Source: a bacterium
GTDB lineage: Bacteria; Electryoneota; JAOADG01
Direction: 5' to 3'
Length of the DNA stretch: 64,000 bases
NCBI GenBank assembly: GCA_963681965.1
Contig: OY820579.1
Span: forward strand, 4,096,001 to 4,160,000
The notes under the pieces were generated by a model. It searched no databases, was not told where the DNA came from, and worked only from the letters and a program-made list of their open reading frames with translations. The position numbers and the translations under genes are program-made. This document shows, one piece after another, positions 42,223-63,272 of the stretch (positions are counted from its first letter, which is position 1; each line of letters starts with the position of its first letter).

Positions 42223-45144
42223 TTATTCGCTGCGGTTTTGCTGCTGATATTTATAGTCTTTATTGTCCTCTTTGTAATAACCGGGGTAGAGTTTTTTCAT
42301 ACACTCGGGACAAATGCTATGAGAAAATTGCGCATCCGACCGCTCGGTGATATAGTGTTCGACTTGCAACCAATATCCTTTGTCGTCGCGAACGTGCTTG
42401 CAATTCGCGCAGATCGGAATTAGACCACTCAATACTTTGACATTTTCCAAAGCATCGGATAACTCTTTCGTGCGCGTCGCCACCCGCTCTTCCAACTTCG
42501 CATTGGCGCGTTTGACGGCTAGCAATCGAACAGTATAGATCAATACAATCACACCAATCACTATGACCGCTACCATCAATTTGAAGAGCATCGTTTCGTG
42601 ATAATATGCCGGCACGTTGATCGTGATGGTTTTCTTGAGATCCTGCTTCTTACCAAAAATATTGGTAGCTTTCAATTGAAAGGTATAGGTTCCCGGTGGA
42701 ATCTGATGGATGTTGACTTCATTCACCTTGGTCAGAAGCGAAAAACTGTCGCTCAATCCATCCAATTTCCACGAATAGCGATTGTTATGCTCGCTTACGA
42801 AATCCAACGATGCATAACGGATCTTAAGCGACCGTTGACCCCGCGGCAAATCGATCGAGGAGTGAATCGGATGCGAAGTATTGTTCGACCAAATCCCCGT
42901 TACCGCTACCGGTTTAGTATTGGTTCCAGAATTCCACAGTGTATTTAAATCGATAATGACGATATTGTTCGATTGGAGTAGTAAATAGCGATCGGGATCG
43001 ATTTCAATGATCCGTTTTACATTGTCTTCATCGAGACCGAATTGTCGATCGATCATATAATTCGACGTGGAATTGGCAAACAGTAACCCTTCCGATGTAG
43101 CATACAAGCGGTTTCCGTGCCGATCGAAAAATAGATCCTGATAACTGCATTTCTGATCCGATAACTCTTCCGGTCGCGAGATTCCGGAGCGATCGATTTT
43201 AACCACCCCTTCGCTTGCCAGAAAATAGAGATTACCCGATCCATCGGCGACGCACCGACTGATCGCACCGACATTGCCAACTTTCTTTAAGTCGCAATCG
43301 GTCAGTGAATCACCTTCCAATCGCATGAGCGATCCGGTGAAGGTGCCAAGATAGTAGCGCGAATCGAATGCATACCCGCCACACATCGCGATGTTGTCGC
43401 GCAACCGGTTCGCTATCGGCAGGTAGAGCAAAGTGTGATCGAAATCCCGCATATCCCATTGCACAAAATCTGCCGTACCGTAGCGATATAAATTATGATC
43501 TACCAAGCGGTAGCTGTGATTCCAATTGCCGAAAAAAGTTGTATTGTCGGGACCGGTGTAGGCGAAGTTGCAATACAACATCGCTTTTTCCCAATCCTTA
43601 TTGTAGATCAGTTTATCGCCCGTCCATTGGCAAATAAACCAACCGCAGTTAATCCACAACTTACCACTGCGATCCAATGAGAATACCGCTTTCTCACCGC
43701 CGGTATAAATATGACTCGCGAGTATTTTTACATTATTGTCGTGAATCAGGAACAGCGAAGAATCGGATAGCAGTACGATATCCTGATTTTTATCCAGCGC
43801 CAGACCTCGAATAATTTCTTCGCTGTTCAGTCGGATCGGTAGATCTGTCAGTTTCCCGCGGGAATAGCGGACCAATTTATTTTCGCAGGCGATATAGACG
43901 TCGCCATTGCGGTGTTTCACCGCTTCGACGGTTTCCTTAATAGCAGGAATTGTTTGCCGATTGTATTTCCTGATGCTGCTCGTGACCAGTTTTTGCAGAA
44001 TGCCTTCTTTGGTAGTAATCCAATAGATTCCCTGATCGTCGCGAAGACAATTGATTACGTCGTCGGAAACTAAACCGGTTGCTGCCGAGAACCGCAGCGT
44101 ATCGTTCGTGCGCAGAATCGTCAGACCATCGTTGTTGCCGACAACCTGCTCGGTTCCGAATAATTGAAAAAATGTCGTGGGTTTATCGAATGGGTCGACC
44201 GGTTTACATTTATGTAGCTCGTCGCCGATGATTTGGTAAACACCGTCGCGAGCATGGACCCATACATTTCCTTGATTATCGCGCAGGATTTTGTTAATGA
44301 ACCACCCCTTGGAATAAGCAGGTGCGATCCAAAATTTACTATTGGCAAGAAAGAAACTCTTACTGCGATCATTCGAATTAAATGTAAAACAGGTCGAATC
44401 GATCGTTTGTGCCGAATGATATACAAAACCGAGATGTATTCCGGGATATTTTTTTTGAAATTCCGCTTCCGGTAATCCTTCAAAATCTTTTAATAACGCT
44501 TTATCTTTCAGCTCCCACAGCGCCAGCAGCGTACTCAGTTTTACCCGATAAATTCCATCCATTTCGGATGCCAGCCAAAACGTCTCGGAAGTAGGATCGT
44601 AGGTAAAGTCGACCAGATAATTCGTCTGAAGATAAGTAGTATTGAAATTCCGCCAGATCCAAGCATAGAAGCCTTCGCCACGCTTCATGATCAGACCGGC
44701 AGATGTCGCGTAAAACGACATCCCCTTGATAAATTGCACATTCTTCACAACCAGATTGTGCAATGTCGGATCAACAGTGATTTTTCCAGTCTCCGGATCG
44801 TACACTGAAATCCCACTCCAGCTACAAATCCAGAGCTTACCATCAGGGGCTTCCACTATTTTGTAAGTATGGTTGTTCGAGAGCCCATCGCTCACGGAGA
44901 ATCGTTGGAATTCGTAACCGTCGTAACGCACAATTCCGCGCGATCCGGCAAACCAAAGGAAACCCCGGCTGTCTTGCATACTACCATTCACTTCGCCAAT
45001 ATCCGGGAAGTGGACATCGTCGTAAGTGTAGAACGCGTATTGTTGGGCTTGTGAACAGTGGGGAGAGAACAAAACCGCCAGACTGAGAATCAGTATGGAG
45101 AGCAGAGGAATTCGATTAATTACCGATCTCAAGTAATCGTTCAT
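42223..45144 (-). CDS. Periplasmic beta-propeller/Y_Y_Y sensor with a C-terminal Cys-rich domain and no histidine kinase
   Basis: QDSRGFLWF, YDGYEF, DGLSNN (Reg_prop repeats); YSWKLDG..PGTYTFQLKA (Y_Y_Y); TM; LEERVATRTKEL; LIPICANCK..RDDKGYW...FSHSICPEC. Confidence 0.88.
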   Translation of the reverse strand: MNDYLRSVINRIPLLSILILSLAVLFSPHCSQAQQYAFYTYDDVHFPDIGEVNGSMQDSRGFLWFAGSRGIVRYDGYEFQRFSVSDGLSNNHTYKIVEAPDGKLWICSWSGISVYDPETGKITVDPTLHNLVVKNVQFIKGMSFYATSAGLIMKRGEGFYAWIWRNFNTTYLQTNYLVDFTYDPTSETFWLASEMDGIYRVKLSTLLALWELKDKALLKDFEGLPEAEFQKKYPGIHLGFVYHSAQTIDSTCFTFNSNDRSKSFFLANSKFWIAPAYSKGWFINKILRDNQGNVWVHARDGVYQIIGDELHKCKPVDPFDKPTTFFQLFGTEQVVGNNDGLTILRTNDTLRFSAATGLVSDDVINCLRDDQGIYWITTKEGILQKLVTSSIRKYNRQTIPAIKETVEAVKHRNGDVYIACENKLVRYSRGKLTDLPIRLNSEEIIRGLALDKNQDIVLLSDSSLFLIHDNNVKILASHIYTGGEKAVFSLDRSGKLWINCGWFICQWTGDKLIYNKDWEKAMLYCNFAYTGPDNTTFFGNWNHSYRLVDHNLYRYGTADFVQWDMRDFDHTLLYLPIANRLRDNIAMCGGYAFDSRYYLGTFTGSLMRLEGDSLTDCDLKKVGNVGAISRCVADGSGNLYFLASEGVVKIDRSGISRPEELSDQKCSYQDLFFDRHGNRLYATSEGLLFANSTSNYMIDRQFGLDEDNVKRIIEIDPDRYLLLQSNNIVIIDLNTLWNSGTNTKPVAVTGIWSNNTSHPIHSSIDLPRGQRSLKIRYASLDFVSEHNNRYSWKLDGLSDSFSLLTKVNEVNIHQIPPGTYTFQLKATNIFGKKQDLKKTITINVPAYYHETMLFKLMVAVIVIGVIVLIYTVRLLAVKRANAKLEERVATRTKELSDALENVKVLSGLIPICANCKHVRDDKGYWLQVEHYITERSDAQFSHSICPECMKKLYPGYYKEDNKDYKYQQQNRSE

Positions 45145-45541
45145 CACTATTCGAAAGTTAGTTGTACCGAGCTGGCACTGTTCTTTTATATCGGCACTTT
45201 CCTGTAAATCATTATCAACTAAGTTGAGACGTATTGGTCTTGGCTGAAACCCCAAACATGACTGAGAAAACACTCTTTCAGTCTAATTATCAATATCGTA
45301 TCGTTGATTTCGGCAAGCAAATCGGAATTATGTCTATTACCAACTTCAGTACTATCGAAATCCGAACCTGTAACACGGTTATAATCTCGATTCTGGGCTA
45401 TTCGCCGAATCTCAGCATAACCCTATTCTAGCGAAAAAATCACAATTTATCTCATTTCCTATTGATTATCCCCCCACTCCGGTGTATCCTGTATGTTACA
45501 TTCAATTTTCAGTGCAATTTAAAAAAAATTAAGGAGAATCC

Positions 45542-46288
45542 ATGGCGATAGATCTGGAAAAAATCCTACGACCAGTCGATACGCCCCTGCCACCTTTTCC
45601 GGCGAAATACATGACGCTTGCCGGTGGCGAGCAATTAGTAATCCGTCAAGTCTCCCGCGATGAAATTCCCGAGATTCTACCCCATGTCGAACCGCTGATC
45701 CATGTCGAGCGCGACTATTACGACATCGTTGCAGCACGGGTCTATGCCGAACTGCTGAGTTACTACACCTACCGGGTGCAGGATGAGTACGTTTTGGCGG
45801 CGCAGATCGATGGCGAGTTGGTCGCAGTGGTCAACGGTCGGATCGTGAACAAAGATGTCGGCATGTCCTTCCATACCCTTGCACTCCGGCGCGGTTTGCG
45901 CGTAGGCGCTCACGCCTTTGCGGCGAAGATGGAATATCACATCGATGTGCTTGGGCAAAAGGAAGTACTGATTGTTGCCGAATCGCCGATCGGTTTCCGG
46001 CGCTGGATGATCGAATATAAGTTGGAAAAACGCTTTGAAATTCCTCACGAATTGGGCGGTTGTCCATCGTGGGCACTCACCAAAGAGCTGTTCGATAAAG
46101 CGCGCGACAGTTTGATTGTCGGTCGTCGACCGGTCCCGGAAGCGTTGCTGGTGAAAGCGCATGCCGCCATCCTGCCGCCGACCGATCCACCGCGACCTCC
46201 GGTCGACCTGCTCGCCGCAACGCGCTCACTCTACGATTCCACCGGAACTGCGCTGCTCGAGCAGCGAAAACATCTGGGAGGAAACTAA
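45542..46288 (+). CDS. Hypothetical protein, possibly GNAT fold; first gene of the catabolic cluster
   Basis: Strong aggag RBS; 1 bp gap to the thiolase start; LVIRQV...VLAAQIDGELVAV...RRGLRVG resembles GNAT strand order and motif A. Confidence 0.6.
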   Translation: MAIDLEKILRPVDTPLPPFPAKYMTLAGGEQLVIRQVSRDEIPEILPHVEPLIHVERDYYDIVAARVYAELLSYYTYRVQDEYVLAAQIDGELVAVVNGRIVNKDVGMSFHTLALRRGLRVGAHAFAAKMEYHIDVLGQKEVLIVAESPIGFRRWMIEYKLEKRFEIPHELGGCPSWALTKELFDKARDSLIVGRRPVPEALLVKAHAAILPPTDPPRPPVDLLAATRSLYDSTGTALLEQRKHLGGN

Positions 46289-46289
46289 T

Positions 46290-47465
46290 ATGCGCGATGT
46301 CTATGTAGCGGGAATCGGCATTACCAGTTTCACCCGGCTCGAGTATCCGTTGGTGGAAATTGCCGCCTATCCCGGATTGATGGCGATGAAAGAGAGCGGT
46401 ATCAAATCGATCGACCAACTCTATGTCGCCAACATGGGTGCTGCCCGGGTCAATCACCAGACCAGTCTTGCCAGTGCCGTCGTCGACAATCTGAGTTTGA
46501 CACCCGCCGGTGCAGTATCGGTTGAAAATGGTCCGGCATCCGGCGCTTCGGCAATCATGCAGGGTTTTCTCGCCGTCGCTTCGGGTGTGTACGATACCGT
46601 TATGGTCATCGGCGCCGAACGGATGCGCGAAGTGAACAATCTGGAAGCCACCGACTTCGTCGCGACACTCACTCACCCGATGGCGGAATACATCTACGGA
46701 ATCACACTCCCGTCGCTGGCGGGCATGTTCGCCCGGTTGTATATGGAAAAATACGGCGTTACCTCGCGACATCTCGCGATGGTCGCAGTAAAGAATCACA
46801 AACATGCGATGGACAATTTCTTTGCGCATCTGCACGAAGAGATAACGCTCGAAGGGATCCTCGATTCCCCAGACGCATCGACCAACAACCCGATCGTAGC
46901 CGACCCGTTGCGGTATTACGATATGTGCCCGGTATCCGATGGCGGTGCGTGCTTGATCTTGACTTCTGCCGATATCGCAAAGAAGACCGGCAAACCGATT
47001 GTGCGCCTCGCGGGTATCGGTCAGGCTACCGACACTCATGCCGTACACGACCGGAAGGATCCGACCGATCTGTTGGCGGTGCGGTTGGCAGCGCAAAAAT
47101 CGTTTGCAATGGCACAATTGACGCCGAAAGATGTCCATGTCGCCGAACTCCACGACGCATTCACGATTCTGGAAATTGCCGAAAGTGAAGAAGTCGGTTT
47201 CTTCGAACGCGGTCAGGGTCATATTGCGTTGCAGGAAGGATACACCAAAATCGGTGGTAAACTACCGATCAATCCATCCGGCGGTCTGAAGGCGAAGGGT
47301 CACCCGGTCGGCGCAACCGGCGTCGGACAGGCACACGAGATCGTGTTGCAGTTACGCGGCGAAGCCGCAAAACGGCAAGTGAAAGGGGCGAAAGTCGGTT
47401 TCACCTGCAATTTCGGCGGGTTCGGCAATAACGTCGTCTGTTTGACTTTTGTGCGGGAGGAGTGA
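46290..47465 (+). CDS. Thiolase-fold protein (SCP2/archaeal type) lacking the nucleophilic Cys
   Basis: VAVKNH, PVSDGGA, ELHDAF and INPSGGL.AKGHPVGATG; reads ENGPASG where ENACASG is expected. Start at MRDVYVAG after ggagg. Confidence 0.9.
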   Translation: MRDVYVAGIGITSFTRLEYPLVEIAAYPGLMAMKESGIKSIDQLYVANMGAARVNHQTSLASAVVDNLSLTPAGAVSVENGPASGASAIMQGFLAVASGVYDTVMVIGAERMREVNNLEATDFVATLTHPMAEYIYGITLPSLAGMFARLYMEKYGVTSRHLAMVAVKNHKHAMDNFFAHLHEEITLEGILDSPDASTNNPIVADPLRYYDMCPVSDGGACLILTSADIAKKTGKPIVRLAGIGQATDTHAVHDRKDPTDLLAVRLAAQKSFAMAQLTPKDVHVAELHDAFTILEIAESEEVGFFERGQGHIALQEGYTKIGGKLPINPSGGLKAKGHPVGATGVGQAHEIVLQLRGEAAKRQVKGAKVGFTCNFGGFGNNVVCLTFVREE

Positions 47466-47815
47466 TCGTGGAAATGAATATTTATGCCTACAAGTGCAAG
47501 CGCTGCGGTCACGTGCAATACCCTTACCGTACGATCTGCCGCAATTGTCACGAAAACGACCACAACGAATTCGATATCGTACCGTTGCCGAAGTCCGGGA
47601 AGTTGGTGACCTACACGCATCTATACAATCCCCCTTCGGACTATGCGATTGTCTGCCTGACACTGGGCATCGTCGAACTCGAAGATGGCAACAAAATCAC
47701 TGGACAACTCAACATCAAAAATCCGCGAACCGGAATGCCGGTGACCGGAAAAGTGGAAGTGGTCCGCAAAGACGAATACAACAAATATTACGGGATGGTT
47801 TTCTACGAAGCCTGA
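47462..47815 (+). CDS. DUF35 Zn-ribbon/OB-fold protein
   Basis: KCKRCG..YPYRTICRNC, GKLVTYT and GIVELEDG..ITGQL; overlaps the thiolase stop codon. Confidence 0.92.
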   Translation: MIVEMNIYAYKCKRCGHVQYPYRTICRNCHENDHNEFDIVPLPKSGKLVTYTHLYNPPSDYAIVCLTLGIVELEDGNKITGQLNIKNPRTGMPVTGKVEVVRKDEYNKYYGMVFYEA

Positions 47816-47879
47816 TCCCGACATACCGGATCAAGTAGCAATTCGCTCCCCGTTATCGAATGCGACCGACGGGGAGCAG

Positions 47880-48719
47880 TTGCCACAATTGCGAAGCTAC
47901 GGCGACGCGATTCGACGCGGTCACTTTCGCGTACACAGCCGGTTTGAGCATGTCGTCAATTTTCTCGATGGTGAGAATCTGGTATCGATTGTCGATCACT
48001 CTGTCGGTGCAGGTCCGACATCGATCATTCTCGATCGATTTACTCCAACCGAATGGTCTGCGCTGGCGATTTACTCCAATCGAATGCTACTCGATCGAAT
48101 GCGAATCGATCTCAACCCGGCGAATCAATATCAATCGCGAATCGCTTTTCCTCAGACGATCGAACAAATTCTGGTGATCGACAATATCGCTTCCCTGCAT
48201 GAACTTGTCGTGAGGCAAGCAACACCGGATAATTTGGCATTCCTGCTTTCCGACGATGAGGATATCGGAACCGATTTATCCTTCAAGGCGCAACTAAGAA
48301 CTCGGTTTTTTACCGCCAAAGCTCAGTTGGCAGCCGGGCAAATCGAAGCGGGCATCTCGCTCATCAAGGGCGTTGGTGTCGGATTGACACCGAGTGGCGA
48401 CGACTTTATCGCCGGAGCGATGGTCGCATTGCATTTACGGCAGCACTTATTTCCGATATCATTAACACAATTGATCGATCAAATTTATCAACGGTCGCAT
48501 TCGACCAATCCGATTGTAGCCACCATGCTGCGACAGGCACACGACGGTCGCGTGAATGAAAAATGGCAGCGTCTGATTACGGCGTTGACCGGTAATGAAC
48601 TGGATCGAATCAAACCACTCGCGCTAGACGTGCTTGCGACCGGCGCTACGTCCGGCGTCGATATGATGGTAGGTTTTCTCTTTGGCTTGACCAATTTCCG
48701 GTGTACACATGACAACTAA
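47880..48719 (+). CDS. DUF2877 (YlbF/AllH/YahE-like) protein
   Basis: VHSRFEHVVN, GVGVGLTPSGDDFIAG, TNPI and GATSGVDM..G. Confidence 0.85.
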   Translation: MPQLRSYGDAIRRGHFRVHSRFEHVVNFLDGENLVSIVDHSVGAGPTSIILDRFTPTEWSALAIYSNRMLLDRMRIDLNPANQYQSRIAFPQTIEQILVIDNIASLHELVVRQATPDNLAFLLSDDEDIGTDLSFKAQLRTRFFTAKAQLAAGQIEAGISLIKGVGVGLTPSGDDFIAGAMVALHLRQHLFPISLTQLIDQIYQRSHSTNPIVATMLRQAHDGRVNEKWQRLITALTGNELDRIKPLALDVLATGATSGVDMMVGFLFGLTNFRCTHDN

Positions 48720-50244
48720 CGGTCTTATCGTGCGCGGTGAATATTTCGATTCCGTCACGCTGATGATGGCGGCGAAGCGCGTCAATGAATTACCCGGTGT
48801 GATCGATAGTGCAATCGTGATGGGTACTGCCGAGAACAAAGCGATTTTAGCGGCATCGGGATTATTGATCGCGTCATTCGCAACGGCTACCGATGCCGAT
48901 TTGTTAATCGCGGCAAAAACCGACGATCCGGCTCGTGCCGAAACAATTCTTCCCGAAATCCGGGAATTATTGAAAACAATTCGGAAACGGGGAACATCCG
49001 GCAGCAAATCGTTACCGCGTACGCTCGATTCGGCAATCAAGCTATTACCGGATGCCAATCTCTGCATGATTTCGGTGGCGGGTCGTTTTGCCGGCGATGT
49101 CGCGATGAATGCATTGCAACACAATTTGCACGTGATGCTGTTCTCGGATAATGTCAGTGTCGAGCGGGAAATTGAATTGAAGCGCTTTGCGCGCGAACAC
49201 GGTTTGCTGCTGATGGGACCCGACTGCGGTACCGCGATTATCAACGGTGTTCCACTCGCGTTTGCGAATGTCGTTCAGCCGGGTGATATCGGTTGTGTCG
49301 CGGCAGCAGGAACGGGACTGCAGGAAGTCACGAGTCTCGTTTCGAATCTCGGCGGCGGTATCTCGCAAGCGATCGGCACCGGTGGTCGCGATGTCAAGCA
49401 AGCCGTCGGCGGAATTATGTTCCTCGAAACGATCCGCCTGCTGGCAGCAGATCCTGCCACAAAAGTCATCGTGCTGATTTCTAAACCGCCGCATCCCGAC
49501 GTTCTGAACAAGATTTTCGAACTTTGTATATCGATTACGAAACCGATTATCGCTTCGTTCCTCGGTGTCGATCCAGAAATCATTCGAGCTGCTGGTATGA
49601 TTCCGGCGCAATCCCTCGCCGCTGCCGCTCGTCGCGTAGTTGCATCGAGTAATCCGGAATTCGCTCCATCGGAATCGTCTGTGATCAATCCCAAAAAAGC
49701 ACCCGTCGAATTCACTGCGCAACAAAAATTTGTTCGTGGATTATTCAGTGGTGGCACTTTCTGTTACGAAGCGCAGTTGCTGTTGCACGATCTAACCGGT
49801 GCGATCTATTCGAATGCTCCAACTGGACGTTCGATCGCACTGGAAAATGTATTAGTAAGCCGCGAACACACGATCATCGATCTCGGTGAAGATGAATTCA
49901 CTGTCGGTCGACCGCACCCGATGATCGATTTTTCACTCCGCAACAAGCGGATTATTCAAGAAGCCGACGACCCTGAAACAGCGGTCATTCTGCTCGATCT
50001 GGTACTTGGCTATGGCGCGAACCGCGATCCACTTACCGACCTGCTACCGGCAATCCGGCAGGCGCAAGCCGTAGCAAAAGATCATTCTCGGAATTTACCC
50101 ATCGTCACTTCGGTGACGGGTACCGATAGCGATCCGCAGTGTCGTTCGACAGTGGTGGAAGGGCTCCGCAGCGCTGGAGTGATTGTTGCGGAATCGAATG
50201 CGGCAGCGTGCGAAATCGTAAAATCACTGCTCGGAATTCACTGA
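48709..50244 (+). CDS. fdrA: FdrA (AllF/YahF-like) succinyl-CoA-ligase-fold protein
   Basis: YFDSVTLM, MGTAENK, MLFSDNV, MGPDCGTAII, IGTGGRD, GLFSGGT, DLGEDEFTVGRPHPMID and LDLVLGYGA. Confidence 0.92.
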   Translation: MTTNGLIVRGEYFDSVTLMMAAKRVNELPGVIDSAIVMGTAENKAILAASGLLIASFATATDADLLIAAKTDDPARAETILPEIRELLKTIRKRGTSGSKSLPRTLDSAIKLLPDANLCMISVAGRFAGDVAMNALQHNLHVMLFSDNVSVEREIELKRFAREHGLLLMGPDCGTAIINGVPLAFANVVQPGDIGCVAAAGTGLQEVTSLVSNLGGGISQAIGTGGRDVKQAVGGIMFLETIRLLAADPATKVIVLISKPPHPDVLNKIFELCISITKPIIASFLGVDPEIIRAAGMIPAQSLAAAARRVVASSNPEFAPSESSVINPKKAPVEFTAQQKFVRGLFSGGTFCYEAQLLLHDLTGAIYSNAPTGRSIALENVLVSREHTIIDLGEDEFTVGRPHPMIDFSLRNKRIIQEADDPETAVILLDLVLGYGANRDPLTDLLPAIRQAQAVAKDHSRNLPIVTSVTGTDSDPQCRSTVVEGLRSAGVIVAESNAAACEIVKSLLGIH

Positions 50245-50286
50245 ATTGTTCCAAAGAAAATACATGTATCGAGGAAATAGCCAATC

Positions 50287-51690
50287 ATGAGCAATTTATT
50301 CGATCAAAAATTAAATGTGATTAATGTCGGTCTGGAATCGTTTAAGACGACACTCGATGAATCGGGAACGCCCGCAGTGCAGATGGATTGGCGTCCACCA
50401 CTGGCGGTGAGTACGGCTGCTCGCGATGCGATCACCGCTCATCGCACCGAAATCGACCAAGCGAATCGCGAGACGGTCGACCGCATCATCGCCGGAAAAC
50501 CATATTGGATTGGCTTGGGTCACGCGCTTGAATGTATCCCCGGCATGCACCCGAAATTGATTCTGCACGCCGGACCACCGATCACCTGGGAGCGGATGTG
50601 CGGACCGATGCGCGGCGCGATCATCGGCGCGTTGTTGTATGAAGGACTCGCCGCGGACGAAGTCACAGCCGAACAGATGGCGGCATCCGGCGAAATCGAA
50701 TACGCCCCGTGTCATGAACACGCCACAGTCGGTCCAATGGCGGGAATCGTGTCGGCGTCGATGCCGGTCTCGGTGGTGTTCAATGCCACGTTTGGCAATT
50801 ATGCCTACACCACACTGAATGAAGGTCTTGGTAAAGTATTGCGCTACGGTGCCTACAGCCCAGAAGTACTGACCCGCTTAAAGTGGATGGAACGCGTGTT
50901 GTTTCCGGTGCTGCAGGCTGCCGTCGCCCATGCCGAGAAAATCGATCTCAAAGCGATCATAGCCCAAGCGCTGCACATGGGCGATGAAGTGCACAACCGC
51001 AATCGCGCGGCGACCTCGCTGCTCTACCGTACATTGGCAACACATATCGTGCGTACTGCCGAGGATTACGAAACCGCTGCGAAAGTACTCGACTTCATCA
51101 ACGGTAACGATCATTTCTTCCTGAATCTTTCCATGGCATCCGGGAAAGCATGTCTCGATGCTGCGCGCGATATTCCCAATAGCAGCGTCGCCATCGTGAT
51201 GGCACGCAATGGTACCGACTTCGGGATCCAACTATCCGGCACGGGAAATCGCTGGTTCACCGGTCCTGCGCCGGTTCCCGATGCACTCTTCTTTCCCGGA
51301 TTCACGAAAGCCGATGCCAATCCCGACATCGGCGACAGCGCTATCACCGAAACGTATGGTCTCGGCGGTTTCGCGATCGCAGCATCACCCGCGATCGTGC
51401 AATTCGTCGGCGGTCAAGCCAGCGACGCGCTGCAATACACTTTGAAGATGTACGACATCACGACAGCGGAGAATCCCGGATTCCAAATTCCCGCGCTCGA
51501 TTTCCGCGGTACGCCGATCGGGATCGATGTCCGTAAAGTTGTCGATACCGGCATTCTCCCGTTTATCGATACGGGCGTCGCACACAAAAAACCCGGCATC
51601 GGTCAAGTTGGAGCAGGAGTGTTATCAGCACCGCCGGAACCGTTTATCAACGCCTTTGAAGGTTTTTCCGAACAATACCGAAACGCATAA
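50287..51690 (+). CDS. DUF1116 (YlbE/AllG/YahG-like) protein
   Basis: LHAGPPI, PCHEH..VGPMAG, MGDEVHNRN, NDHFFLN, ARNG, PDIGDSAITE and GQVGAG. Confidence 0.92.
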   Translation: MSNLFDQKLNVINVGLESFKTTLDESGTPAVQMDWRPPLAVSTAARDAITAHRTEIDQANRETVDRIIAGKPYWIGLGHALECIPGMHPKLILHAGPPITWERMCGPMRGAIIGALLYEGLAADEVTAEQMAASGEIEYAPCHEHATVGPMAGIVSASMPVSVVFNATFGNYAYTTLNEGLGKVLRYGAYSPEVLTRLKWMERVLFPVLQAAVAHAEKIDLKAIIAQALHMGDEVHNRNRAATSLLYRTLATHIVRTAEDYETAAKVLDFINGNDHFFLNLSMASGKACLDAARDIPNSSVAIVMARNGTDFGIQLSGTGNRWFTGPAPVPDALFFPGFTKADANPDIGDSAITETYGLGGFAIAASPAIVQFVGGQASDALQYTLKMYDITTAENPGFQIPALDFRGTPIGIDVRKVVDTGILPFIDTGVAHKKPGIGQVGAGVLSAPPEPFINAFEGFSEQYRNA

Positions 51691-51728
51691 CGAACGAATA
51701 CAATCAATCGAAAATGAAGGAGCAGAGC

Positions 51729-52541
51729 ATGAAGACTGAAGAATTTCTGGCATTCATGGGCAAATTGAAGCTCTACGATTTAACCCAGCGACTTTCGATC
51801 CACACCCCCCCGTGGCCGAGTTACATGCCGCTCGGGATCCAGTATTTCAAGCGCATCGCTGGCGCACACATGGGTCAGGGCGCCAATGGTCAAATCATCA
51901 CGACCAGCAATCATGTCGGTACCCATATCGATGGCGAGATTCATTTTCACGCGAGCGGTCGTGCGATCGGTCAGGTTCCGATGACGGAGTGGGTTGGTGA
52001 TGGCGTGATTGTCGATATTTCTAAAGAGGTCGAGGATTACGGTCTCTATTCGCCGGATTTATTGATGAGCAAAGCCGAAATCAAGAAGGGCGACATTCTG
52101 ATCATCAATACCGGCTATCACAAGTATGCCTGGGATCAACCCGGTTCCGACGAAATCCGCTACTTCGTGAAGCATCCCGGACCCGATCCGGAATTTCACA
52201 AGTGGGCGCTAAAAATGAAATTCAAGTGGATCGGCGTCGATTGCGGCAGCGCCGACCATCCGATGAACACAATCATTCGCAACTGGCATCCGAAACCGTT
52301 CATCGAAGCCGAGAAGAAATTGAAGAAGCAGTACGGCAAGGATTGGGATGAATTCTTCCCACCGGAAATTTATTATCAGGTAATGCACCTAAAATTGTTC
52401 CCGAAGAAATTGGTGCATGCCGAAAATCTCGGTGGTGAAATCGACAAACTCTCCAACAAACGCGCGTGGATCGGTCTGTTCCCGTTGCGCGGTATCGAGC
52501 TGGAATCGTCGATGTGCCGGATTGTCGCAATGCTTCCCTGA
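51729..52541 (+). CDS. Cyclase-family metal-dependent amidohydrolase (kynurenine formamidase/isatin hydrolase fold)
   Basis: YDLTQ, metal motif HVGTHIDGEIHF, KKGDILIINTG, GVDCGSADHP and HAENL. Confidence 0.88.
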   Translation: MKTEEFLAFMGKLKLYDLTQRLSIHTPPWPSYMPLGIQYFKRIAGAHMGQGANGQIITTSNHVGTHIDGEIHFHASGRAIGQVPMTEWVGDGVIVDISKEVEDYGLYSPDLLMSKAEIKKGDILIINTGYHKYAWDQPGSDEIRYFVKHPGPDPEFHKWALKMKFKWIGVDCGSADHPMNTIIRNWHPKPFIEAEKKLKKQYGKDWDEFFPPEIYYQVMHLKLFPKKLVHAENLGGEIDKLSNKRAWIGLFPLRGIELESSMCRIVAMLP

Positions 52542-52611
52542 TCGGTGTTGGGGATTGGTGCTTGGTGCGAGGAAAAGAAGTCGGGTGCATTGAGGATGAA
52601 CTACTTTTTTG

Positions 52612-52708
52612 GTAGGGGCGGTTCGCGAACCGCCTGTATCTAGTGGATAATTACTTGCGAAATTTTGCAGGCTCTTTCGGCAGAAGGGGCGGACCCCCGT
52701 GTCCGCCC
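52612..52708. repeat. Two REP palindromes within the catabolic cluster
   Basis: GTAGGGGCGGTTCGCGAACCGCC at 52612 and GAAGGGGCGGACCCCCGTGTCCGCCC at 52683. Confidence 0.8.
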
Positions 52709-52831
52709 GCAGATATTTTTTACTAGTACCGGTACTCTTGTCTGTACACGTTGTGCAGCGCCGATCATAGCATCCTGACAATAATAGATTTATTACAGTT
52801 TGACCGATACAAGCGTTAATGAGGAGTCGTC

Positions 52832-53719
52832 ATGGCGATCCTGCATGAATTCGACTACCACCGCCCGGAAACGGTGTCGGCGGCAGTCAAACTACTGACC
52901 AAATTCAAACATCCGATGTTGCTGGCAGGCGGCACCGATCTGATCAATGAATTGAAAGCGGAAGTCATCCACCCGGATGGAGTCATCGATCTCAAAGCAA
53001 TTCCCGAACTGCACGACATTACATTTTCGAATGGCGTCTTGACAATCGGTGCGGCTGTGACTTTTGCCGAATTGATCGAATCGCGGATCATTCAAACGAA
53101 ATTCCCGGTGATTGCGGAAGTCGCGCGAACCGTCGGTTCCACCGGTGTTCGCAATCGCGCCACCATGATCGGGAATATCTGTTCCGCCGTTCCCTGTGCC
53201 GACAGCGCCCCGTTGCTCACCGCCTATGAAGCGCACGTGTTGGTGCGCAGCCTCCGATCGAAACGAAAAATTCCGATCGCCTCGTGGTTCATCGGCAATC
53301 GCAAAACCGCCATCAAACCGGGTGAGATCGTTACTGCGGTGGAAATCGCATTGCCTGCCCGCAATCATGCCGGTTGCTTTGTGAAGTTGGGTCGCTACTC
53401 CGGTGAAGATCTGGCGCAAGCGAGTGTGATTATACTCGCGCTACCGAAACGCCAATATCGCATCGCGTTTGGTTCGGTCGGGATTACGCCAATTCGCGCC
53501 GAGCGGCTGGAAAAGCTGTTGAACGGGCATCTTCCATCGGACGAGCGTATTGCTGAAGCCAAAGCCATCATTCCGGAAATTGTCAAACCGATCTCCGATA
53601 TCCGTGCCTCGAAAGAGTACCGGTTACATATGTGTCAGGTAATGTTTGCGCGCGGAATCGAAGCCGCCGTCGCACGCCTGAATGGTAACGGTTCCGAATA
53701 CGGTTCGAAGTTGATCTAG
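52832..53719 (+). CDS. Xanthine dehydrogenase-family FAD-binding (medium) subunit
   Basis: FDYHRP, LAGGTDL, VRNRATMIGNI and PISDIRAS.EYR. Confidence 0.94.
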   Translation: MAILHEFDYHRPETVSAAVKLLTKFKHPMLLAGGTDLINELKAEVIHPDGVIDLKAIPELHDITFSNGVLTIGAAVTFAELIESRIIQTKFPVIAEVARTVGSTGVRNRATMIGNICSAVPCADSAPLLTAYEAHVLVRSLRSKRKIPIASWFIGNRKTAIKPGEIVTAVEIALPARNHAGCFVKLGRYSGEDLAQASVIILALPKRQYRIAFGSVGITPIRAERLEKLLNGHLPSDERIAEAKAIIPEIVKPISDIRASKEYRLHMCQVMFARGIEAAVARLNGNGSEYGSKLI

Positions 53720-53733
53720 GAGAGCGTGTCGCC

Positions 53734-54243
53734 ATGAACAATAAAACAGCATTTATCCTGAATGGTCAATCCGTGGAAATCGCGGTGGAACCGCATGAAA
53801 TCCTACTCGACGTGTTGCGCTACAAGCTCGGTGTGAAAAGTCCGAAATGCGGCTGCGATCGCGGCGATTGCGGGTCGTGTACCGTCATGATCGACGGTCG
53901 CACCGTCCGCAGTTGCATGGTGCTTGCGATCGAAATTGCCGGGCAGCGTGTCACGACCCTCGAAGGCTTGATGGCAGGCGGCGAGCTGACCAATCTGCAA
54001 CAGGCATTCCTGAAACATAATTCGTTTCAGTGTGGCTACTGCGCACCCGGAATGATTCTCTCCGCGACCGAATTGCTTGCGAAAAATCCTCATCCCGACA
54101 AGACCGAAATCAATCAAGCGATCGCGGGTAACCTCTGTCGCTGTACCGGATATCATCCGATCACCGATGCAATCGTCGAAGTCGCGAACGAAGCACCTCC
54201 GCCACCGAAAATTGCCAAAGCTGCGAAAGGAGGTCGGCGATGA
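53734..54243 (+). CDS. Xanthine dehydrogenase-family 2x[2Fe-2S] (small) subunit
   Basis: GCDRGDCGSCTV...SC, QCGYCAPG and GNLCRCTGY. Confidence 0.95.
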   Translation: MNNKTAFILNGQSVEIAVEPHEILLDVLRYKLGVKSPKCGCDRGDCGSCTVMIDGRTVRSCMVLAIEIAGQRVTTLEGLMAGGELTNLQQAFLKHNSFQCGYCAPGMILSATELLAKNPHPDKTEINQAIAGNLCRCTGYHPITDAIVEVANEAPPPPKIAKAAKGGRR

Positions 54244-56585
54244 GTGAACTCAATTTTGTCGGTCACGATGCCATTCGAGTGGATGGAAAAGTCAAAGTCA
54301 CCGGTGCCGCACAATTCGTCGACGATCTCGAATTCGGTCCCGGATTGTTGTTTGCCGAAATCATCGAGAGTCCCCACGCACATGCATTGATCAAAAAAAT
54401 CGATACCCGTGCGGCGGAAAAAGTGCCGGGTGTCGTGAAGATCGTCACTGGCGCCAATTTTCCGTATCGCTTCGGGTTGTATATGCACGACCGGTATATC
54501 TTTGCGCAGGATCGTGTCCGGTTCGTCGGCGAGCAAGTCGCCGCAGTGATCGCGCGCGATGTCGTGACGGCGAAGCGCGCCGCGAAACTGGTGAAAGTGA
54601 CCTATCGGGAACTCCCGCCGATCCTCGATGTCGCAACCGCAATGTCGCCTGATGCCTTGTTGATCCATCCCGAATTGAAAGGATACCACCACGTCCCGTG
54701 GTTCTTCCCGCAAGCGGACAGCAATATTGCGCACTGGCGCAAAGTCCGGAAAGGGGATACCGACGCAGGGATGCGCGAAGCCGATTTTATCTTCGAAGAT
54801 ACTTACACCGTTCCACGATATGCGCATTGCGCCATCGAGACTCATGGTGCCGTCGGACAATTCGATTTGTCGGGACGATTGACTGTCTGGTCGGCATCTC
54901 AATCGCCGTTCACTCAGCGCAATCTCTTTGCCGAAGCGCTTGCACCGTTGGGCATTACGCATAGCGATGTGCGGGTAATCGCACCGTATGTTGGTGGTGG
55001 ATTTGGCGGTAAAGCCGGAGTGTCGATGGAGATTCTCGCGGCAGCATTGGCAACTGCCGTACAGGGAAATCCGGTGAAAGTGCTCTGGTCGCGCGAACAG
55101 GAATTTTACAACACCTATCAGCGGCAAGGGGTGACGGCGAAAACCAAAATCGGTGTGAAGCGCGACGGTACGATCACTGCGCTGGAACAGACGTTGTATT
55201 GGGATGCCGGCGCGTATGTCGAATATGGCGCGAATGTCGTGAATGCCGCCGGTCTCTCTGCTACCGGACCATACCGCATTCCGCATGTCAAAATCGATTC
55301 GTATTGCGTCTATACCAATCTCCCGCCGGGTGGTCCGTACCGCGGCTTCGGCTATTCCGAATTCCTGTTCGGTCTCGAATCGCACATCAACGAAACCGCG
55401 AAAGCGCTCGGCATCGATCCAGTCGAGTTCCGGCGGATCAACGCGATTCAGGCGGGCGACACGCTAACCTACGGTGCGAAAATGAATCCAAGCGGGATGA
55501 AAGAGTGTATCGATAAAGCGGCAGCAGCAATCGAATGGGGCACGCCATCGCTTCCATCCGACAACCCGAATATCTTGAAAGGGAAAGGCTTCGCCTGCTT
55601 CTGGAAAGCACCGGCAATGCCGCCGAATGCGGCTTCGACCGCATTCATCAAATTCAATGAAGATGCCAGTCTGAATATTCTGGTATCTGCGATGGAGATC
55701 GGACAAGGCTTCCTGACAGTGATGGCGCAAATTGCCGCGGAGGTTTTAACAATTCCGGTCGAAAAGATTCGCGTTGAATTGCCGGACACCGATCGCAATC
55801 CGTACGAATGGCAAACCGTCGCCTCGCATATCACGTGGGGTACCGGCAATGCCGTCAAGAAGGCGGCGGAGGATTGCCGTGAGCAAATCTTTGCCGTGGT
55901 CGAACGCGCACTCGGCAAGTCGCACGAGGATTTATTTCTCGTGAATGAGGAAGTACATTCTCACAAAGATCTGGAATTCATCCTTCCGTTACGGAATTTC
56001 GTGATCAACGGGATCATGATGCCTGACGGCACCTTTCGCGGCGGTCCGATCATGGGACGTGGCACCTTCATGCCGGAATTTGCCTCGGCGCAATCCGATC
56101 CCGAGACCAGTCAAGGCAGCAAACCGAATGTTCATTACACCGTCGGTGCTGCTGCCGTTGAAGTCGAAATCGATCGTGAAAGCGGGAGTGTCCGCATTCC
56201 CCGGGTCGCGCTCGCAGTCGATGTCGGCAAGGCGATCAATCCCGGTCTGGTGAAGGATCAGGTGATCGGTGGATTAATGCAGGGGATCGCGACGGTGCTC
56301 TATGAAGACATGCGGTTCGATGCAAAGGGACGAATGCTGAACGACAACTTCACCGACTATAAAATTCCGACGGCACTCGATGTTCCCGACGAAGTGATTC
56401 CGATTATCGTCGAAGTCGCGCAACCGGACGGTCCCTATGGCGCTCGCGGGATGGGTGAACATACGATGATTCCAGCCGCGCCGATGATTGCGAATGCGAT
56501 CGAGAATGCGACCGGTATTCGAATCAAAGCGATGCCGATCACTGCCGAAAAAATCGCACTGGCAATCAAGAATCGCGGAGCGTAA
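54240..56585 (+). CDS. Xanthine dehydrogenase-family molybdopterin-binding (large) subunit
   Basis: KVTGAAQFVDD, GGGFGGK, YRGFG, EIGQG, DYKIPT and GARGMGE (catalytic Glu). Confidence 0.95.
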   Translation: MSELNFVGHDAIRVDGKVKVTGAAQFVDDLEFGPGLLFAEIIESPHAHALIKKIDTRAAEKVPGVVKIVTGANFPYRFGLYMHDRYIFAQDRVRFVGEQVAAVIARDVVTAKRAAKLVKVTYRELPPILDVATAMSPDALLIHPELKGYHHVPWFFPQADSNIAHWRKVRKGDTDAGMREADFIFEDTYTVPRYAHCAIETHGAVGQFDLSGRLTVWSASQSPFTQRNLFAEALAPLGITHSDVRVIAPYVGGGFGGKAGVSMEILAAALATAVQGNPVKVLWSREQEFYNTYQRQGVTAKTKIGVKRDGTITALEQTLYWDAGAYVEYGANVVNAAGLSATGPYRIPHVKIDSYCVYTNLPPGGPYRGFGYSEFLFGLESHINETAKALGIDPVEFRRINAIQAGDTLTYGAKMNPSGMKECIDKAAAAIEWGTPSLPSDNPNILKGKGFACFWKAPAMPPNAASTAFIKFNEDASLNILVSAMEIGQGFLTVMAQIAAEVLTIPVEKIRVELPDTDRNPYEWQTVASHITWGTGNAVKKAAEDCREQIFAVVERALGKSHEDLFLVNEEVHSHKDLEFILPLRNFVINGIMMPDGTFRGGPIMGRGTFMPEFASAQSDPETSQGSKPNVHYTVGAAAVEVEIDRESGSVRIPRVALAVDVGKAINPGLVKDQVIGGLMQGIATVLYEDMRFDAKGRMLNDNFTDYKIPTALDVPDEVIPIIVEVAQPDGPYGARGMGEHTMIPAAPMIANAIENATGIRIKAMPITAEKIALAIKNRGA

Positions 56586-56626
56586 CAAATCATTTATCGG
56601 TGAATATCGTATCAATGAAACGTTTG

Positions 56627-56650
56627 AAACCCGCCTTATTGGCGGGTTTT
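56627..56650. terminator. Terminator after the molybdoenzyme genes
   Basis: aaacccgcc-ttatt-ggcgggtttt between convergent genes. Confidence 0.75.
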
Positions 56651-56695
56651 GGCGTTATACACAGTTTTGAATGGATGGCGATTCGAATCTTCTGT

Positions 56696-57841
56696 TTATT
56701 CACCCAACAGTCGTTCGTACAGTGCAAACAGCTTTTCCTCTTCCGGTTCCCAACGAATATTCTTGCGCACCCATTCCCGAGCAGCCGCTCCTGCTCGCAC
56801 GCGCTCCCGTTCGTCCGACAGCACGGCAGCGATCGTATCGGCAATCGCAGTGGCATCTTCGGGAATGTAATAGACGCCGGGCAGATCGTTCGGCAGCACG
56901 TCCGCCAACGCTGCCAGTTTCGTGGTAATCACCGGTACGCCCCAACCGAGGTAGTAGAAGATTTTTTGCGGAATATTGAACCGGTAGCGATCAACCATCG
57001 TCGGCATCACTGCCAATTTCGCCATTGCCATTAAATCGTAATTCTCGTCGAGTGAAACATAACCGCGATGCTCGACCAATTCTTCGATACCGCGCGAAAT
57101 CAACGCTCGATCCCAGGGCAACAATTCCGGATCGGTCGGCGGTGTGCCGGTAAAAATCATTCGTGTCGGTCTACCGCGATCCTTTAACATTTTCAGAGCA
57201 TCGAGGATCAATGTCCCGCCGCGATCTTGTGTCAAAATACCGCCGTAATGCAGTTCCGGATGATTGCTCGGACGTTCCGGAATCGCGCGGTCCAATTCGA
57301 ATTGAAAGGGGAAATTCAACAACGGCTGTACCGGTTTGATCCGTTTATCGAGATAATAGCGTGCCGTCGGATTGTCGCTTGTCAACGTTGCATCGACTTG
57401 GTGCACCAGAAACGGAATGATATCGTTGGAAAACCACTGAAAGAATGGTTGCTTGAAGGTGCCCTGAGCATAATCGGCATATCGCGCGGCATCCGGATAG
57501 AATTCGTACGAATCGAAGATCGATGCGACATGTCGACGTTTGGCAATTTCAATCAAGATCGGCAATTGTTCGGGTGAATTGATCTGAATCGCGTCGGGCG
57601 GATCTGCCAGCATTTTGCGGCGATAAATTTTCATTCGCTCGTAACGTTCGCGAAACGATTGTCCCCCGGGATACCCGAAGATCTCGATTCCATCGACAAT
57701 TTTGTGATCGAATTTCGCGCGCGCGTGGATCTCGACCCGGTATTTTTTGGCGAGAGAGCGCGCAATACGCCACATCCGGACGTAATCCCACTGCGTGATG
57801 GTCGCTAGATGTACAATTCGTTTCATTGGAATAGTGATCAA
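56696..57841 (-). CDS. Glycosyltransferase, GT-B fold (family 4-like)
   Basis: LHYGGILTQDRG, HRGYVS, PQKIFYYLGWGVPVI (variant of P.K.FEY) and W..EEEKL..LY. Confidence 0.8.
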   Translation of the reverse strand: MITIPMKRIVHLATITQWDYVRMWRIARSLAKKYRVEIHARAKFDHKIVDGIEIFGYPGGQSFRERYERMKIYRRKMLADPPDAIQINSPEQLPILIEIAKRRHVASIFDSYEFYPDAARYADYAQGTFKQPFFQWFSNDIIPFLVHQVDATLTSDNPTARYYLDKRIKPVQPLLNFPFQFELDRAIPERPSNHPELHYGGILTQDRGGTLILDALKMLKDRGRPTRMIFTGTPPTDPELLPWDRALISRGIEELVEHRGYVSLDENYDLMAMAKLAVMPTMVDRYRFNIPQKIFYYLGWGVPVITTKLAALADVLPNDLPGVYYIPEDATAIADTIAAVLSDERERVRAGAAAREWVRKNIRWEPEEEKLFALYERLLGE

Positions 57842-60280: not shown

Positions 60281-60292
60281 TGCTACTGTTGT

Positions 60293-62533: not shown

Positions 62534-62651
62534 AACGCTTCGATCGAATAGTAGTAACTCATTTTCTGTCGTGCGATCCCACTATTATTCGGAGTGGCAA
62601 CCTCACAATTCGTAGTCTGAATTGCTTCCAAATTCAGATTCAAAACATGGA

Positions 62652-63272
62652 TTACTTCAACAAAACGACCTTCTGTGTTCTTACCGATTCACCTGCTTTC
62701 ATCCGCACAAAATAAGTACCCGACGATAAATTCTTCCCCTCGAAATTGAGCTTGTAATTCCCGGCGCGCTGAAATCCTTGATAGAGGGAACGCACTTCGC
62801 GCCCCTGCAGATCGAATACCTTTAGATCGATGTTCCCCGATTTAGGCAGCGAATACGAGATCGTGGTCGAGGAGTTAAACGGATTCGGGTAGTTTGGGTG
62901 CATCGTGAAGGACTGCGGGATCGATCGTTGCGGTGGTTCTTCAATCCAAGTGGTGCCACCGGTGGAAGTGTGAAAAATTGTACCCGATGCACCACTTATC
63001 CAACCGAGATTTCTATTAAGAAATGCCAGACCCTGAAAATAACCGGTACCAATTTCTGACTGAGAACTCCAATTTTGGCCGCCATCGTCTGTACGCAAAA
63101 TTGTCTCGGCAAATCCAATGATCCATCCAGTTGAATCATTGACAAATTGAACATTTGTTAGACTGGTACTTGTCGGCAGCGGATTCTGCCACTCCCAGTT
63201 CTGCCCCAACGCAGAGTTCGACAACGATTCGAACAGAATGAAAATCGCGGAAATAAGGATTGAGGTTTTCAT
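62652..63272 (-). CDS. Short YCF48/BNR protein (two repeats) with T9SS type-A CTD
   Basis: Signal peptide, QNWEWQNPLP, two BNR units, then NYPNPFNSST CTD. Confidence 0.85.
   Translation of the reverse strand: MKTSILISAIFILFESLSNSALGQNWEWQNPLPTSTSLTNVQFVNDSTGWIIGFAETILRTDDGGQNWSSQSEIGTGYFQGLAFLNRNLGWISGASGTIFHTSTGGTTWIEEPPQRSIPQSFTMHPNYPNPFNSSTTISYSLPKSGNIDLKVFDLQGREVRSLYQGFQRAGNYKLNFEGKNLSSGTYFVRMKAGESVRTQKVVLLK

Follow-up and report, generated by a model that had tools for sequence, protein, structure and literature searches.

Introduction

The oxidative pyrimidine pathway of Rhodococcus, Nocardia and Mycobacterium leads from uracil through barbiturate to ureidomalonate and employs uracil/thymine dehydrogenase, barbiturase (EC 3.5.2.1) and ureidomalonase. 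As related in passages of PMC3758960, the pathway has been known biochemically since the 1950s. In the literature searched, which had most subscription journals outside it, we found no gene assignment for uracil/thymine dehydrogenase or for the ureidomalonate step. Here we describe ten genes (g1 to g10; positions 45542-56585, all co-oriented on the + strand) in the window, a 64,000-nucleotide stretch of contig OY820579.1 (positions 4,096,001 to 4,160,000) from a bacterium of the Electryoneota lineage. Gene context leads us to propose that this cluster is probably an O2-independent, energy-conserving version of the oxidative pyrimidine pathway, with the same intermediates from uracil to ureidomalonate.

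A second described system with a bearing on the locus is AllFGH of Escherichia coli, a proven transcarbamylase that, according to passages of PMC11326118, converts oxalurate and phosphate reversibly into carbamoyl phosphate and oxamate and is co-transcribed with the carbamate kinase AllK. The allFGHK genes also stand beside triuret and biuret genes in metagenome-assembled genomes (MAGs) of nitrifiers, as part of PMC12625717 describes. The same three protein families are encoded in one block in the window.

The archaeal acetoacetyl-CoA thiolase/HMG-CoA synthase/DUF35 complex (6esq/6et9), to which the PhlABC and Ltp2-ChsH2 systems are related, likewise joins a thiolase fold and a DUF35 protein to a third enzyme. 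Scaffolding in this complex ties an uphill reaction to a downhill one. Furthermore, malonyl thioesters are decarboxylated by ketosynthase-like proteins that lack Cys as well as by malonyl-CoA decarboxylases of the GNAT fold, which sets a precedent. In contrast to the archaeal complex, PhlABC and BbsAB, the third gene of the window's trio, whose products form at most a putative complex, encodes a GNAT fold rather than an HMG-CoA synthase or KAS III-like protein.

Results

Pfam and NCBIfam confirmed the modules named in the preliminary description of this locus (thiolase, DUF35, DUF2877, FdrA, DUF1116, cyclase and xanthine dehydrogenase (XDH) family) as the content of g2 to g10, while g1 matched nothing in either. 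A scan with g1 over one genome per species returned 159 relatives; the analysis went on with the best 80 loci, each with a 10-kb flank. The g1 proteins are 72-88% identical across more than 10 phyla, the loci bearing the labels KSB1, Ignavibacteria/Bacteroidota, Verrucomicrobiota, Zixibacteria, Kiritimatiellae, Lentisphaerae, Planctomycetota, Acidobacteriota, Actinomycetota, Elusimicrobiota, Gemmatimonadota, Eisenbacteria, Neomarinimicrobiota, proteobacterial MAGs and others. Median identities by tblastn over the 80 loci are 79% for g1 and g7, 76% for g2, 70% for g10, 65% for g6, 61% for g9, 58% for g3, 53% for g5, 51% for g8 and about 31% for g4, the least conserved member. All ten genes stand in the window's order in 28 of the 80 loci, most of the others stopping at a contig end or at the flank limit, and clustering of all open reading frames (ORFs) of the loci yielded no conserved gene outside the ten. 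The occurrence of the modules together in other genomes, which had been set beforehand as a test, was therefore borne out widely.

Eight loci with enough room hold only g1-g3, with or without AllH. When genomes with such half-clusters were tested, AllG was found elsewhere in 5 of 5, and three have a contiguous FdrA-AllG-cyclase-FAD-FeS-Mo block. In the window's own phylum g1 is present in 3 of 79 genomes, none of them of the same genus or family. This rarity, together with the high identity across phyla, suggests that the cluster moves horizontally as a unit. Some related operons contain additional genes that leave the order unbroken, namely an IS200-like transposase (L003:16958-17392), a BglII-type methylase/endonuclease pair (L033:10827-12370) and a B12-binding radical SAM protein (L006:17785-19224). 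These, and a beta-helix protein, were set aside as mobile or unrelated genes.

The evidence on substrate comes from the ring opener. The g7 product (51714..52541) is a cyclase-family metal hydrolase (PF04199, 112 bits; cut-off 23.1). Its HxGTHxDxxxH metal motif is preserved in an alignment to 4cob, and the protein lies under the arylformamidase equivalog cut-off (46.2 vs 223). Among 41 loci in which AllG and the FAD subunit are both captured, the cyclase is present in 33 and a barbiturase-family gene in seven; none has both, and the one with neither sits on a contig that starts at AllG. The seven are Actinomycetota loci with the order X-AllH-FdrA-AllG-FAD-FeS-Mo-g1-g2-g3 and no cyclase, where X belongs to the AtzD/TrzD/barbiturase family. 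The best PDB match of X is 5hwe, 'Barbiturase', at 513.8 bits, against at most 310 bits for five cyanuric acid hydrolases; X is also over the NCBIfam cyanuric acid amidohydrolase cut-off (457.8 vs 360 bits). Five residues have been proposed to split barbiturases from cyanuric acid hydrolases (Peat et al. 2013, in passages of PMC3758960), and X has all five of the Bar type, AtzD R195/T321/R325/G345/G346 being replaced by N/H/K/V/A. By this sequence signature X is a true barbiturase.

In the 4.24-Mb genome of the window, a PF09663 family search and tblastn with one of the Actinomycetota barbiturases (L056) found no barbiturase/AtzD homologue. Since no otherwise orthologous cluster has both a cyclase and a barbiturase, the cyclase is the candidate ring opener, and the simplest reading of the gene pattern is a non-orthologous displacement in which g7 would do the job of barbiturase. 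This lends support to the earlier suggestion that the cyclase opens a ring to an acyl-urea. With g7 as a substitute for barbiturase, the Mo enzyme would make barbiturate from uracil or 5-methylbarbiturate from thymine, and the AllH-FdrA-AllG proteins would act on ureidomalonate.

We also searched 401 Actinomycetota genomes with X, which gave 21 matches, 16 of them at 68% identity or above. Stretches of 20 kb were taken for 14 of those 16 (G271, and G112, which is a short contig, were left out) and for three distant matches, and ORFs in these high-GC loci were chosen by GC3-based frame. Of the 14 classical loci, 13 have an adjacent carbamate kinase, 11 an NCS2 permease, 10 FdrA and/or AllG and 8 subunits of the XDH family. 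The g1-g3 genes occur in none of the 14, and the g1 family in 0 of all 17. Two loci annotated with Pfam and NCBIfam have a PucR regulator beside the series barbiturase - permease - carbamate kinase - AllH - FdrA - AllG - FAD/FeS/Mo, with kinase scores of 309.4 and 267.1 bits for NF009007 (cut-off 266); the PucR-type regulator of the classical loci is divergent from barbiturase. The position of AllH-FdrA-AllG directly 3' of the kinase gene agrees with the earlier proposal that the FdrA module leads to carbamoyl phosphate. In five classical loci an amidase-signature gene lies 3' of the Mo subunit, accompanied in three by a hydantoinase-A/oxoprolinase-type gene (L111:18656-19960; L120:16076-19455; L115, L116), and this amidase is a candidate malonamidase.

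The corresponding module of the window consists of g4 (47880..48719), an AllH (DUF2877) homologue (PF11392, 85.7 bits), g5 (48709..50244), an FdrA/AllF homologue (NF004760, 499.9 bits against a cut-off of 433), and g6 (50287..51690), an AllG (DUF1116) homologue (PF06545, 324 bits). The AllF families PF00549/PF02629 are present in g5 at 124.5 bits, g5 matches PDB 3dmy at 309.9 bits, and g6, which is single copy in the genome, matches PDB 3clq at 439.7 bits. The three AllFGH subunit families are thus encoded together, as is characteristic of the oxamate carbamoyltransferase (OXTCase) family, and a search of g5 for the GHAG phosphohistidine motif of the succinyl-CoA synthetase type found none. 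In comparison with E. coli, the window's order is H-F-G and not F-G-H, the allantoin-pathway context (allECD upstream, allK in the operon) is missing, and the proposed substrate, ureidomalonate, is one carbon longer than oxalurate; the proposed chemistry is the same, an acyl-urea and phosphate giving carbamoyl phosphate and an amide. Ureidomalonate differs from oxalurate by a single additional CH2, which makes it natural to propose a phosphorolytic 'ureidomalonate carbamoyltransferase' that would supply carbamate kinase.

The carbamate kinase-like gene of this genome stands alone about 880 kb from the cluster and scores 346.7 bits, slightly below the TIGR00746 cut-off. A carbamate kinase at E <= 1e-60 was found in 14 of 14 cluster-bearing genomes tested. 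The kinase-like gene is followed by one for a 444-residue protein with a weak CobW-type match (L137:9544-11834 = G000:C1:3261543-3263833), and selA lies about 8 kb off.

The molybdoenzyme is encoded by g8 (52832..53719), the FAD-binding subunit (PF00941, 157.7 bits; PF03450), g9 (53734..54243), the 2x[2Fe-2S] subunit (PF01799, PF00111), and g10 (54240..56585), the molybdopterin subunit (PF02738, PF20256, PF01315). A GMGE motif of the catalytic-Glu type is present in g10, which falls under the cut-offs of all 13 NCBIfam equivalog models (XdhA 547.5 vs 780, HcrA 537.9 vs 994.55); g8 matches HcrB in two pieces at 110.3 against a cut-off of 404.55. Gene context makes g8-g10 a candidate uracil/thymine dehydrogenase. 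The preliminary description had the Mo enzyme act on some N-heterocycle, which is supported, and narrowed to uracil/thymine as the most likely substrate, by the replacement of the cyclase by barbiturase in the variant and by the NCS2 permeases in the barbiturase loci. Two further XDH-family gene sets lie elsewhere in the genome (G000:C1 ~1,031,900-1,046,100), with Mo subunits 28-32% identical to g10.

The remaining three genes form a trio. The g1 gene (45542..46288) encodes a 248-residue protein of an unannotated family with no Pfam, NCBIfam or PDB sequence match, a candidate for a malonyl-transferring or malonyl-processing enzyme. Its AlphaFold2 model is of moderate confidence (mean pLDDT 64.8), the top Foldseek matches in the PDB are all GNATs (best E 6.4e-07), and the nearest ESM Atlas clusters carry the name 'putative N-acetyltransferase'. 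An invariant RRGLRVGA segment resembles, and is not canonical for, the R/Q-x-x-G-x-G/A motif by which GNATs bind the acyl-CoA pyrophosphate. Thus g1 is a GNAT by predicted fold only, and its earlier description as GNAT-like holds at the level of fold and does not hold at the level of sequence. The family comprises 2569 clusters at 90% identity in a database of 5.8 billion proteins, and all source names among the 120 listed are 'hypothetical protein'. Its sequence space is narrow, with 174 representatives at 50% identity (E <= 0.001) among 1.84 billion.

The g2 product (46290..47465, with an in-frame start at 46290) has a thiolase fold of the SCP2/archaeal type, with Pfam matches to both the N and the C domain of thiolases (Thiolase_C_1, 141.9 bits), and its nearest structures are thiolases of this type (7yvy, 244.4 bits; 4yzo, 244 bits; 6esq, 217.4 bits). 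It is under the cut-off of every NCBIfam thiolase model (best 391.3 vs 420). The position of the nucleophile is occupied by Pro (...ENGPASG... vs ...EAACASG... in PDB 7yvy and 6esq), in the window and in all of the 23 aligned homologues, so that the label 'Cys-less' given to it earlier was correct and g2 lacks the nucleophilic N-terminal-domain cysteine that defines a thiolase. Residues C213, H338 and C373 are likewise invariant in the 23 sequences, the histidine of the GHP motif being kept and C213 and C373 being specific to the family. The neighboring g3 (47462..47815), whose ORF overlaps that of g2 by 4 nt and whose true start is likely the ATG at 47468, encodes a DUF35 protein with a zinc ribbon and an OB fold (zf-ChsH2, OB_ChsH2_C). 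Its four zinc-ribbon Cys are invariant in 19 of 19 sequences, and adjacent thiolase-fold and DUF35 genes with these four Cys are the mark of thiolase/DUF35 complexes.

A more distant subfamily, g1b, 35-42% identical to g1, was traced in metagenome contigs with a four-sequence alignment, which gave 80 g1b loci. The g1b gene occurs in clusters that contain AllH-FdrA-AllG-cyclase-FAD-FeS-Mo and neither thiolase nor DUF35; among these, L153 and L154 have the window's order, and L172, L179 and L186 an NCS2-type permease. The GNAT-fold protein therefore appears to be the constant partner of the pathway, and thiolase/DUF35 an optional one. In 20 of the 80 g1b loci, g1b and the cyclase are neighbored by a gene set for carboxyltransferase (PF01039, 629 bits), OAD-gamma, biotin carrier and OAD-beta (443 bits). 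Often this set lies 3' of NupB/NupC-like ABC permeases and joins the cyclase directly. Its composition is that of a Na+-translocating, biotin-dependent decarboxylase of the (methyl)malonyl-CoA or glutaconyl-CoA type. This decarboxylase is missing from all 80 loci with g1/thiolase/DUF35, and the two never share a locus. The window's cluster likewise has the thiolase-like/DUF35 pair instead, a decarboxylase homologue lying elsewhere in its genome. Because the decarboxylase adjoins g1b and never co-occurs with thiolase/DUF35, the gene arrangement suggests that (methyl)malonyl-CoA is an intermediate made by the GNAT-fold protein, with thiolase/DUF35 as the decarboxylase's soluble counterpart. On the strength of the g1b loci and this decarboxylase pattern, the earlier idea that the trio handles the remaining carbon skeleton is plausible, and it is the least secure step.

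In one sister cluster (L169:3126-10726), NupB/NupC-like permeases, carboxyltransferase, OAD-gamma, biotin carrier, OAD-beta, cyclase and a distant g1-like GNAT are accompanied by AllH on the opposite strand. Stretches of this type have no FdrA, AllG or XDH within the sequence covered; glycosyltransferase and polysaccharide genes lie beyond AllH, so the cluster ends there. Related loci are L140-L145, L166, L168-L173, L181, L184, L195 and L196. In three further loci (L207, L208, L209) a single cluster combines a g1-type gene (55% identity, accompanied by thiolase/DUF35) with a GNAT gene of the g1b type. Where clusters are split, AllH stays with g1-g2-g3 or with g1b, and FdrA-AllG with the cyclase and the Mo enzyme (Verrucomicrobia L133-L135 = G404-G406; L029, L032, L038). 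This partition would be odd if AllH were merely a subunit of an AllFG enzyme.

Neighboring ORFs of the window's cluster overlap by 4, 11 and 4 nt or sit 1-64 nt apart, except between g7 and g8, where a gap of 290 nt (52542..52831) holds two GC-rich hairpins of the GGGGCGG...CCGCC(C) type. The first folds at -20.5 kcal/mol (z -3.5); the second, which has a U6 run behind it, folds at -18.2 kcal/mol (z -1.8). Just tens of bases separate the cyclase and FAD genes of most related loci, where the insert is missing; it is possible that the insert is an internal terminator, an attenuator or a repeat element. A hairpin and U-tract resembling an intrinsic terminator (56619..56665, + strand; -22.3 kcal/mol, z -5.4) lies 3' of g10. 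Ten co-oriented, closely spaced genes ending at one terminator had been described here; the ORFs and the terminator hairpin stand, and the close spacing is broken by the gap between g7 and g8. Rfam detected no riboswitch or leader in 44800-57200, the sole match, an rnk leader below threshold (E 0.22), covering the terminator hairpin, and a scan for consensus promoters and terminators gave fewer sites than in shuffles and missed the terminator 3' of g10.

The genes that flank the cluster on either side are encoded on the opposite strand and bear no relation to it; their products are a Reg_prop/Y_Y_Y protein, a glycosyltransferase and BNR proteins with tails of the type IX secretion system (T9SS). 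Divergent from g1, a 1016-residue Reg_prop plus Y_Y_Y protein is encoded at 42223-45273 (- strand); neither a kinase nor a DNA-binding domain was detected in it, and it is not kept beside the cluster in other genomes. At 58151-63272 (- strand), three BNR/Ycf48-like repeat proteins in a row carry T9SS C-terminal sorting domains, which places the organism within an FCB-type group of phyla.

Discussion

Judged from its genes, the cluster is most likely a new variant of oxidative pyrimidine breakdown, built largely from enzymes without assigned function and widespread in uncultured bacteria. In the proposed route, g8-g10 would oxidize uracil to barbiturate or thymine to 5-methylbarbiturate with oxygen from water, and g7, which is unrelated to barbiturase, would open the barbiturate ring to give ureidomalonate (3-oxo-3-ureidopropanoate). 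The g4-g6 proteins would then phosphorolyse ureidomalonate to carbamoyl phosphate and malonamate, and the carbamate kinase encoded elsewhere in the genome would use carbamoyl phosphate to make ATP. With lower confidence, we propose that g1-g3 act on the C3 remnant, where g1 would transfer the malonyl group to CoA and g2 and g3 would serve as a soluble malonyl-CoA decarboxylase or as a scaffold, giving acetyl-CoA. The literature searched holds no characterized pathway with these modules, as the preliminary description had also stated, and no account of the cluster, of a link between barbiturase and AllFGH/carbamate kinase or of a function for the trio. The earlier outline is broadly supported by the gene comparisons, with the substrate narrowed to pyrimidines.

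By barbiturase, the one sequence-defined criterion of the oxidative pyrimidine pathway, the window's cluster is not a member. The orthologous Actinomycetota variant has the true barbiturase, whereas the window has a cyclase-family ring opener. The acyl-urea in the window is probably phosphorolysed, by an enzyme of the AllFGH type with carbamate kinase, and not hydrolysed to urea. Additionally, the GNAT/thiolase-like/DUF35 trio is added, and the hosts are uncultured lineages of sediments, groundwater and peat.

Several observations weigh against the proposed pathway. The published route ends in a hydrolytic ureidomalonase that yields urea and malonate (Soong et al. 2001, as cited in passages of PMC3758960 and PMC4051656). 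The nearest solved structure to g10 is the alpha subunit of 4-hydroxybenzoyl-CoA reductase (HCR; 356.9 bits), and the Mo subunits found in classical barbiturase loci share only about 29% identity with g10. An NCS2 nucleobase permease is absent from the window's genome, and the cluster is without a transporter. In this genome the hairpin-bearing gap between g7 and g8 may separate two transcripts. With 73 of the 79 genomes of the phylum encoding it, whether or not they have g1, carbamate kinase lacks specificity for the cluster; we rejected it as a marker of co-occurrence, and its presence is compatible with the model and not diagnostic. Finally, transfer of malonyl from a plain amide such as malonamate to CoA is uphill by an estimated 15-20 kJ/mol from textbook values. 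The order of the phosphorolytic and malonyl-transferring steps and the donor for g1 are therefore uncertain, the transfer being pulled by decarboxylation in a complex or starting from an activated acyl-urea.

We tentatively extend the proposed pathway to a complete fermentative route, a version that we regard as possible at about one chance in four. Here three activities that are not known from earlier descriptions would act together: a cyclase-fold barbiturase and an AllFGH-type ureidomalonate phosphorylase would be combined with a DUF35-scaffolded GNAT that performs a 'backwards' N-to-S malonyl transfer, pulled by a Cys-less thiolase-fold malonyl-CoA decarboxylase. If this is true, the Na+-pumping biotin decarboxylase would fill the decarboxylase role in the sister clusters, and ATP would be obtained from both the ureido and the malonyl halves of one uracil.

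The alternative that survives best, which we nevertheless think unlikely, keeps the pyrimidine substrate and changes the order of the late steps. In it, g1 would take malonyl from an acyl-urea (ureidomalonate, or even the barbiturate ring) to CoA, and the substrate of AllFGH would be a ureide that is either bound to CoA or decarboxylated, for instance acetylurea or ureidomalonyl-CoA, so that both imide bonds of barbiturate could be conserved. This order would fit the cyclase lying immediately upstream of g1b in many loci and AllH staying with g1-g3 or g1b when clusters split, and the downstream Na+-pumping decarboxylase speaks for a synthesis of malonyl-CoA that incurs no energy deficit. The reversible OXTCase reaction shows that the group-transfer potential of acyl-ureas is high (passages of PMC11326118). 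However, the classical loci have AllH-FdrA-AllG and carbamate kinase and lack the g1 family, so AllFGH works there without g1, and the barbiturase of the variant clusters is a hydrolase that releases free ureidomalonate.

We consider it improbable that the cluster, in place of the proposed pyrimidine pathway, serves another ureide or N-heterocycle, be it oxalurate derived from purine/allantoin or cyanuric acid/biuret, with AllFGH as an oxamate carbamoyltransferase or a biuret/allophanate phosphorylase. AllF, AllG and AllH are indeed the families of the E. coli OXTCase, allFGHK adjoins triuret/biuret genes in the nitrifier MAGs (in the part of PMC12625717 cited above), and the Actinomycetota ring opener passes the cyanuric acid amidohydrolase cut-off. 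Nevertheless, that ring opener is far nearer to barbiturase than to the cyanuric acid hydrolases and bears every Bar-type residue, the flanking genes and the clustered ORFs of related loci include no conserved allantoin-pathway gene, and there is no biuret or allophanate hydrolase among the conserved neighbor families sampled with Pfam. Very improbable is the breakdown of an aromatic or alicyclic acid through CoA esters, with FdrA as an ADP-forming CoA ligase, the Mo enzyme as an HCR-like dehydroxylase, the cyclase as a ring C-C hydrolase and a BbsAB-like thiolase, since the resemblance of g10 to the HCR alpha subunit, the weak BbsB (g2) and BbsA (g3) matches and the CoA-ligase domains of FdrA are set against g10 and g8 scores far below the HCR equivalog cut-offs, a thiolase without its nucleophilic Cys, no beta-oxidation genes conserved nearby, and the barbiturase, nucleobase permeases and carbamate kinase of related clusters, which indicate pyrimidines.

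Only barbiturase has a well-defined gene family in the oxidative pyrimidine pathway, and the cluster described here, together with its relatives, provides testable candidates for the dehydrogenase and ureidomalonate steps. If the proposed pathway is correct, the ureido group would be conserved as ATP and not lost as urea, the recently defined AllFGH class would gain a second substrate, and a function would be at hand for a widespread 'hypothetical' GNAT-fold family and for the Cys-less thiolase/DUF35 pair. Abundant uncultured lineages from peat, groundwater and sediments carry the cluster, which may be a common route for the recycling of nucleobases under anoxic conditions.

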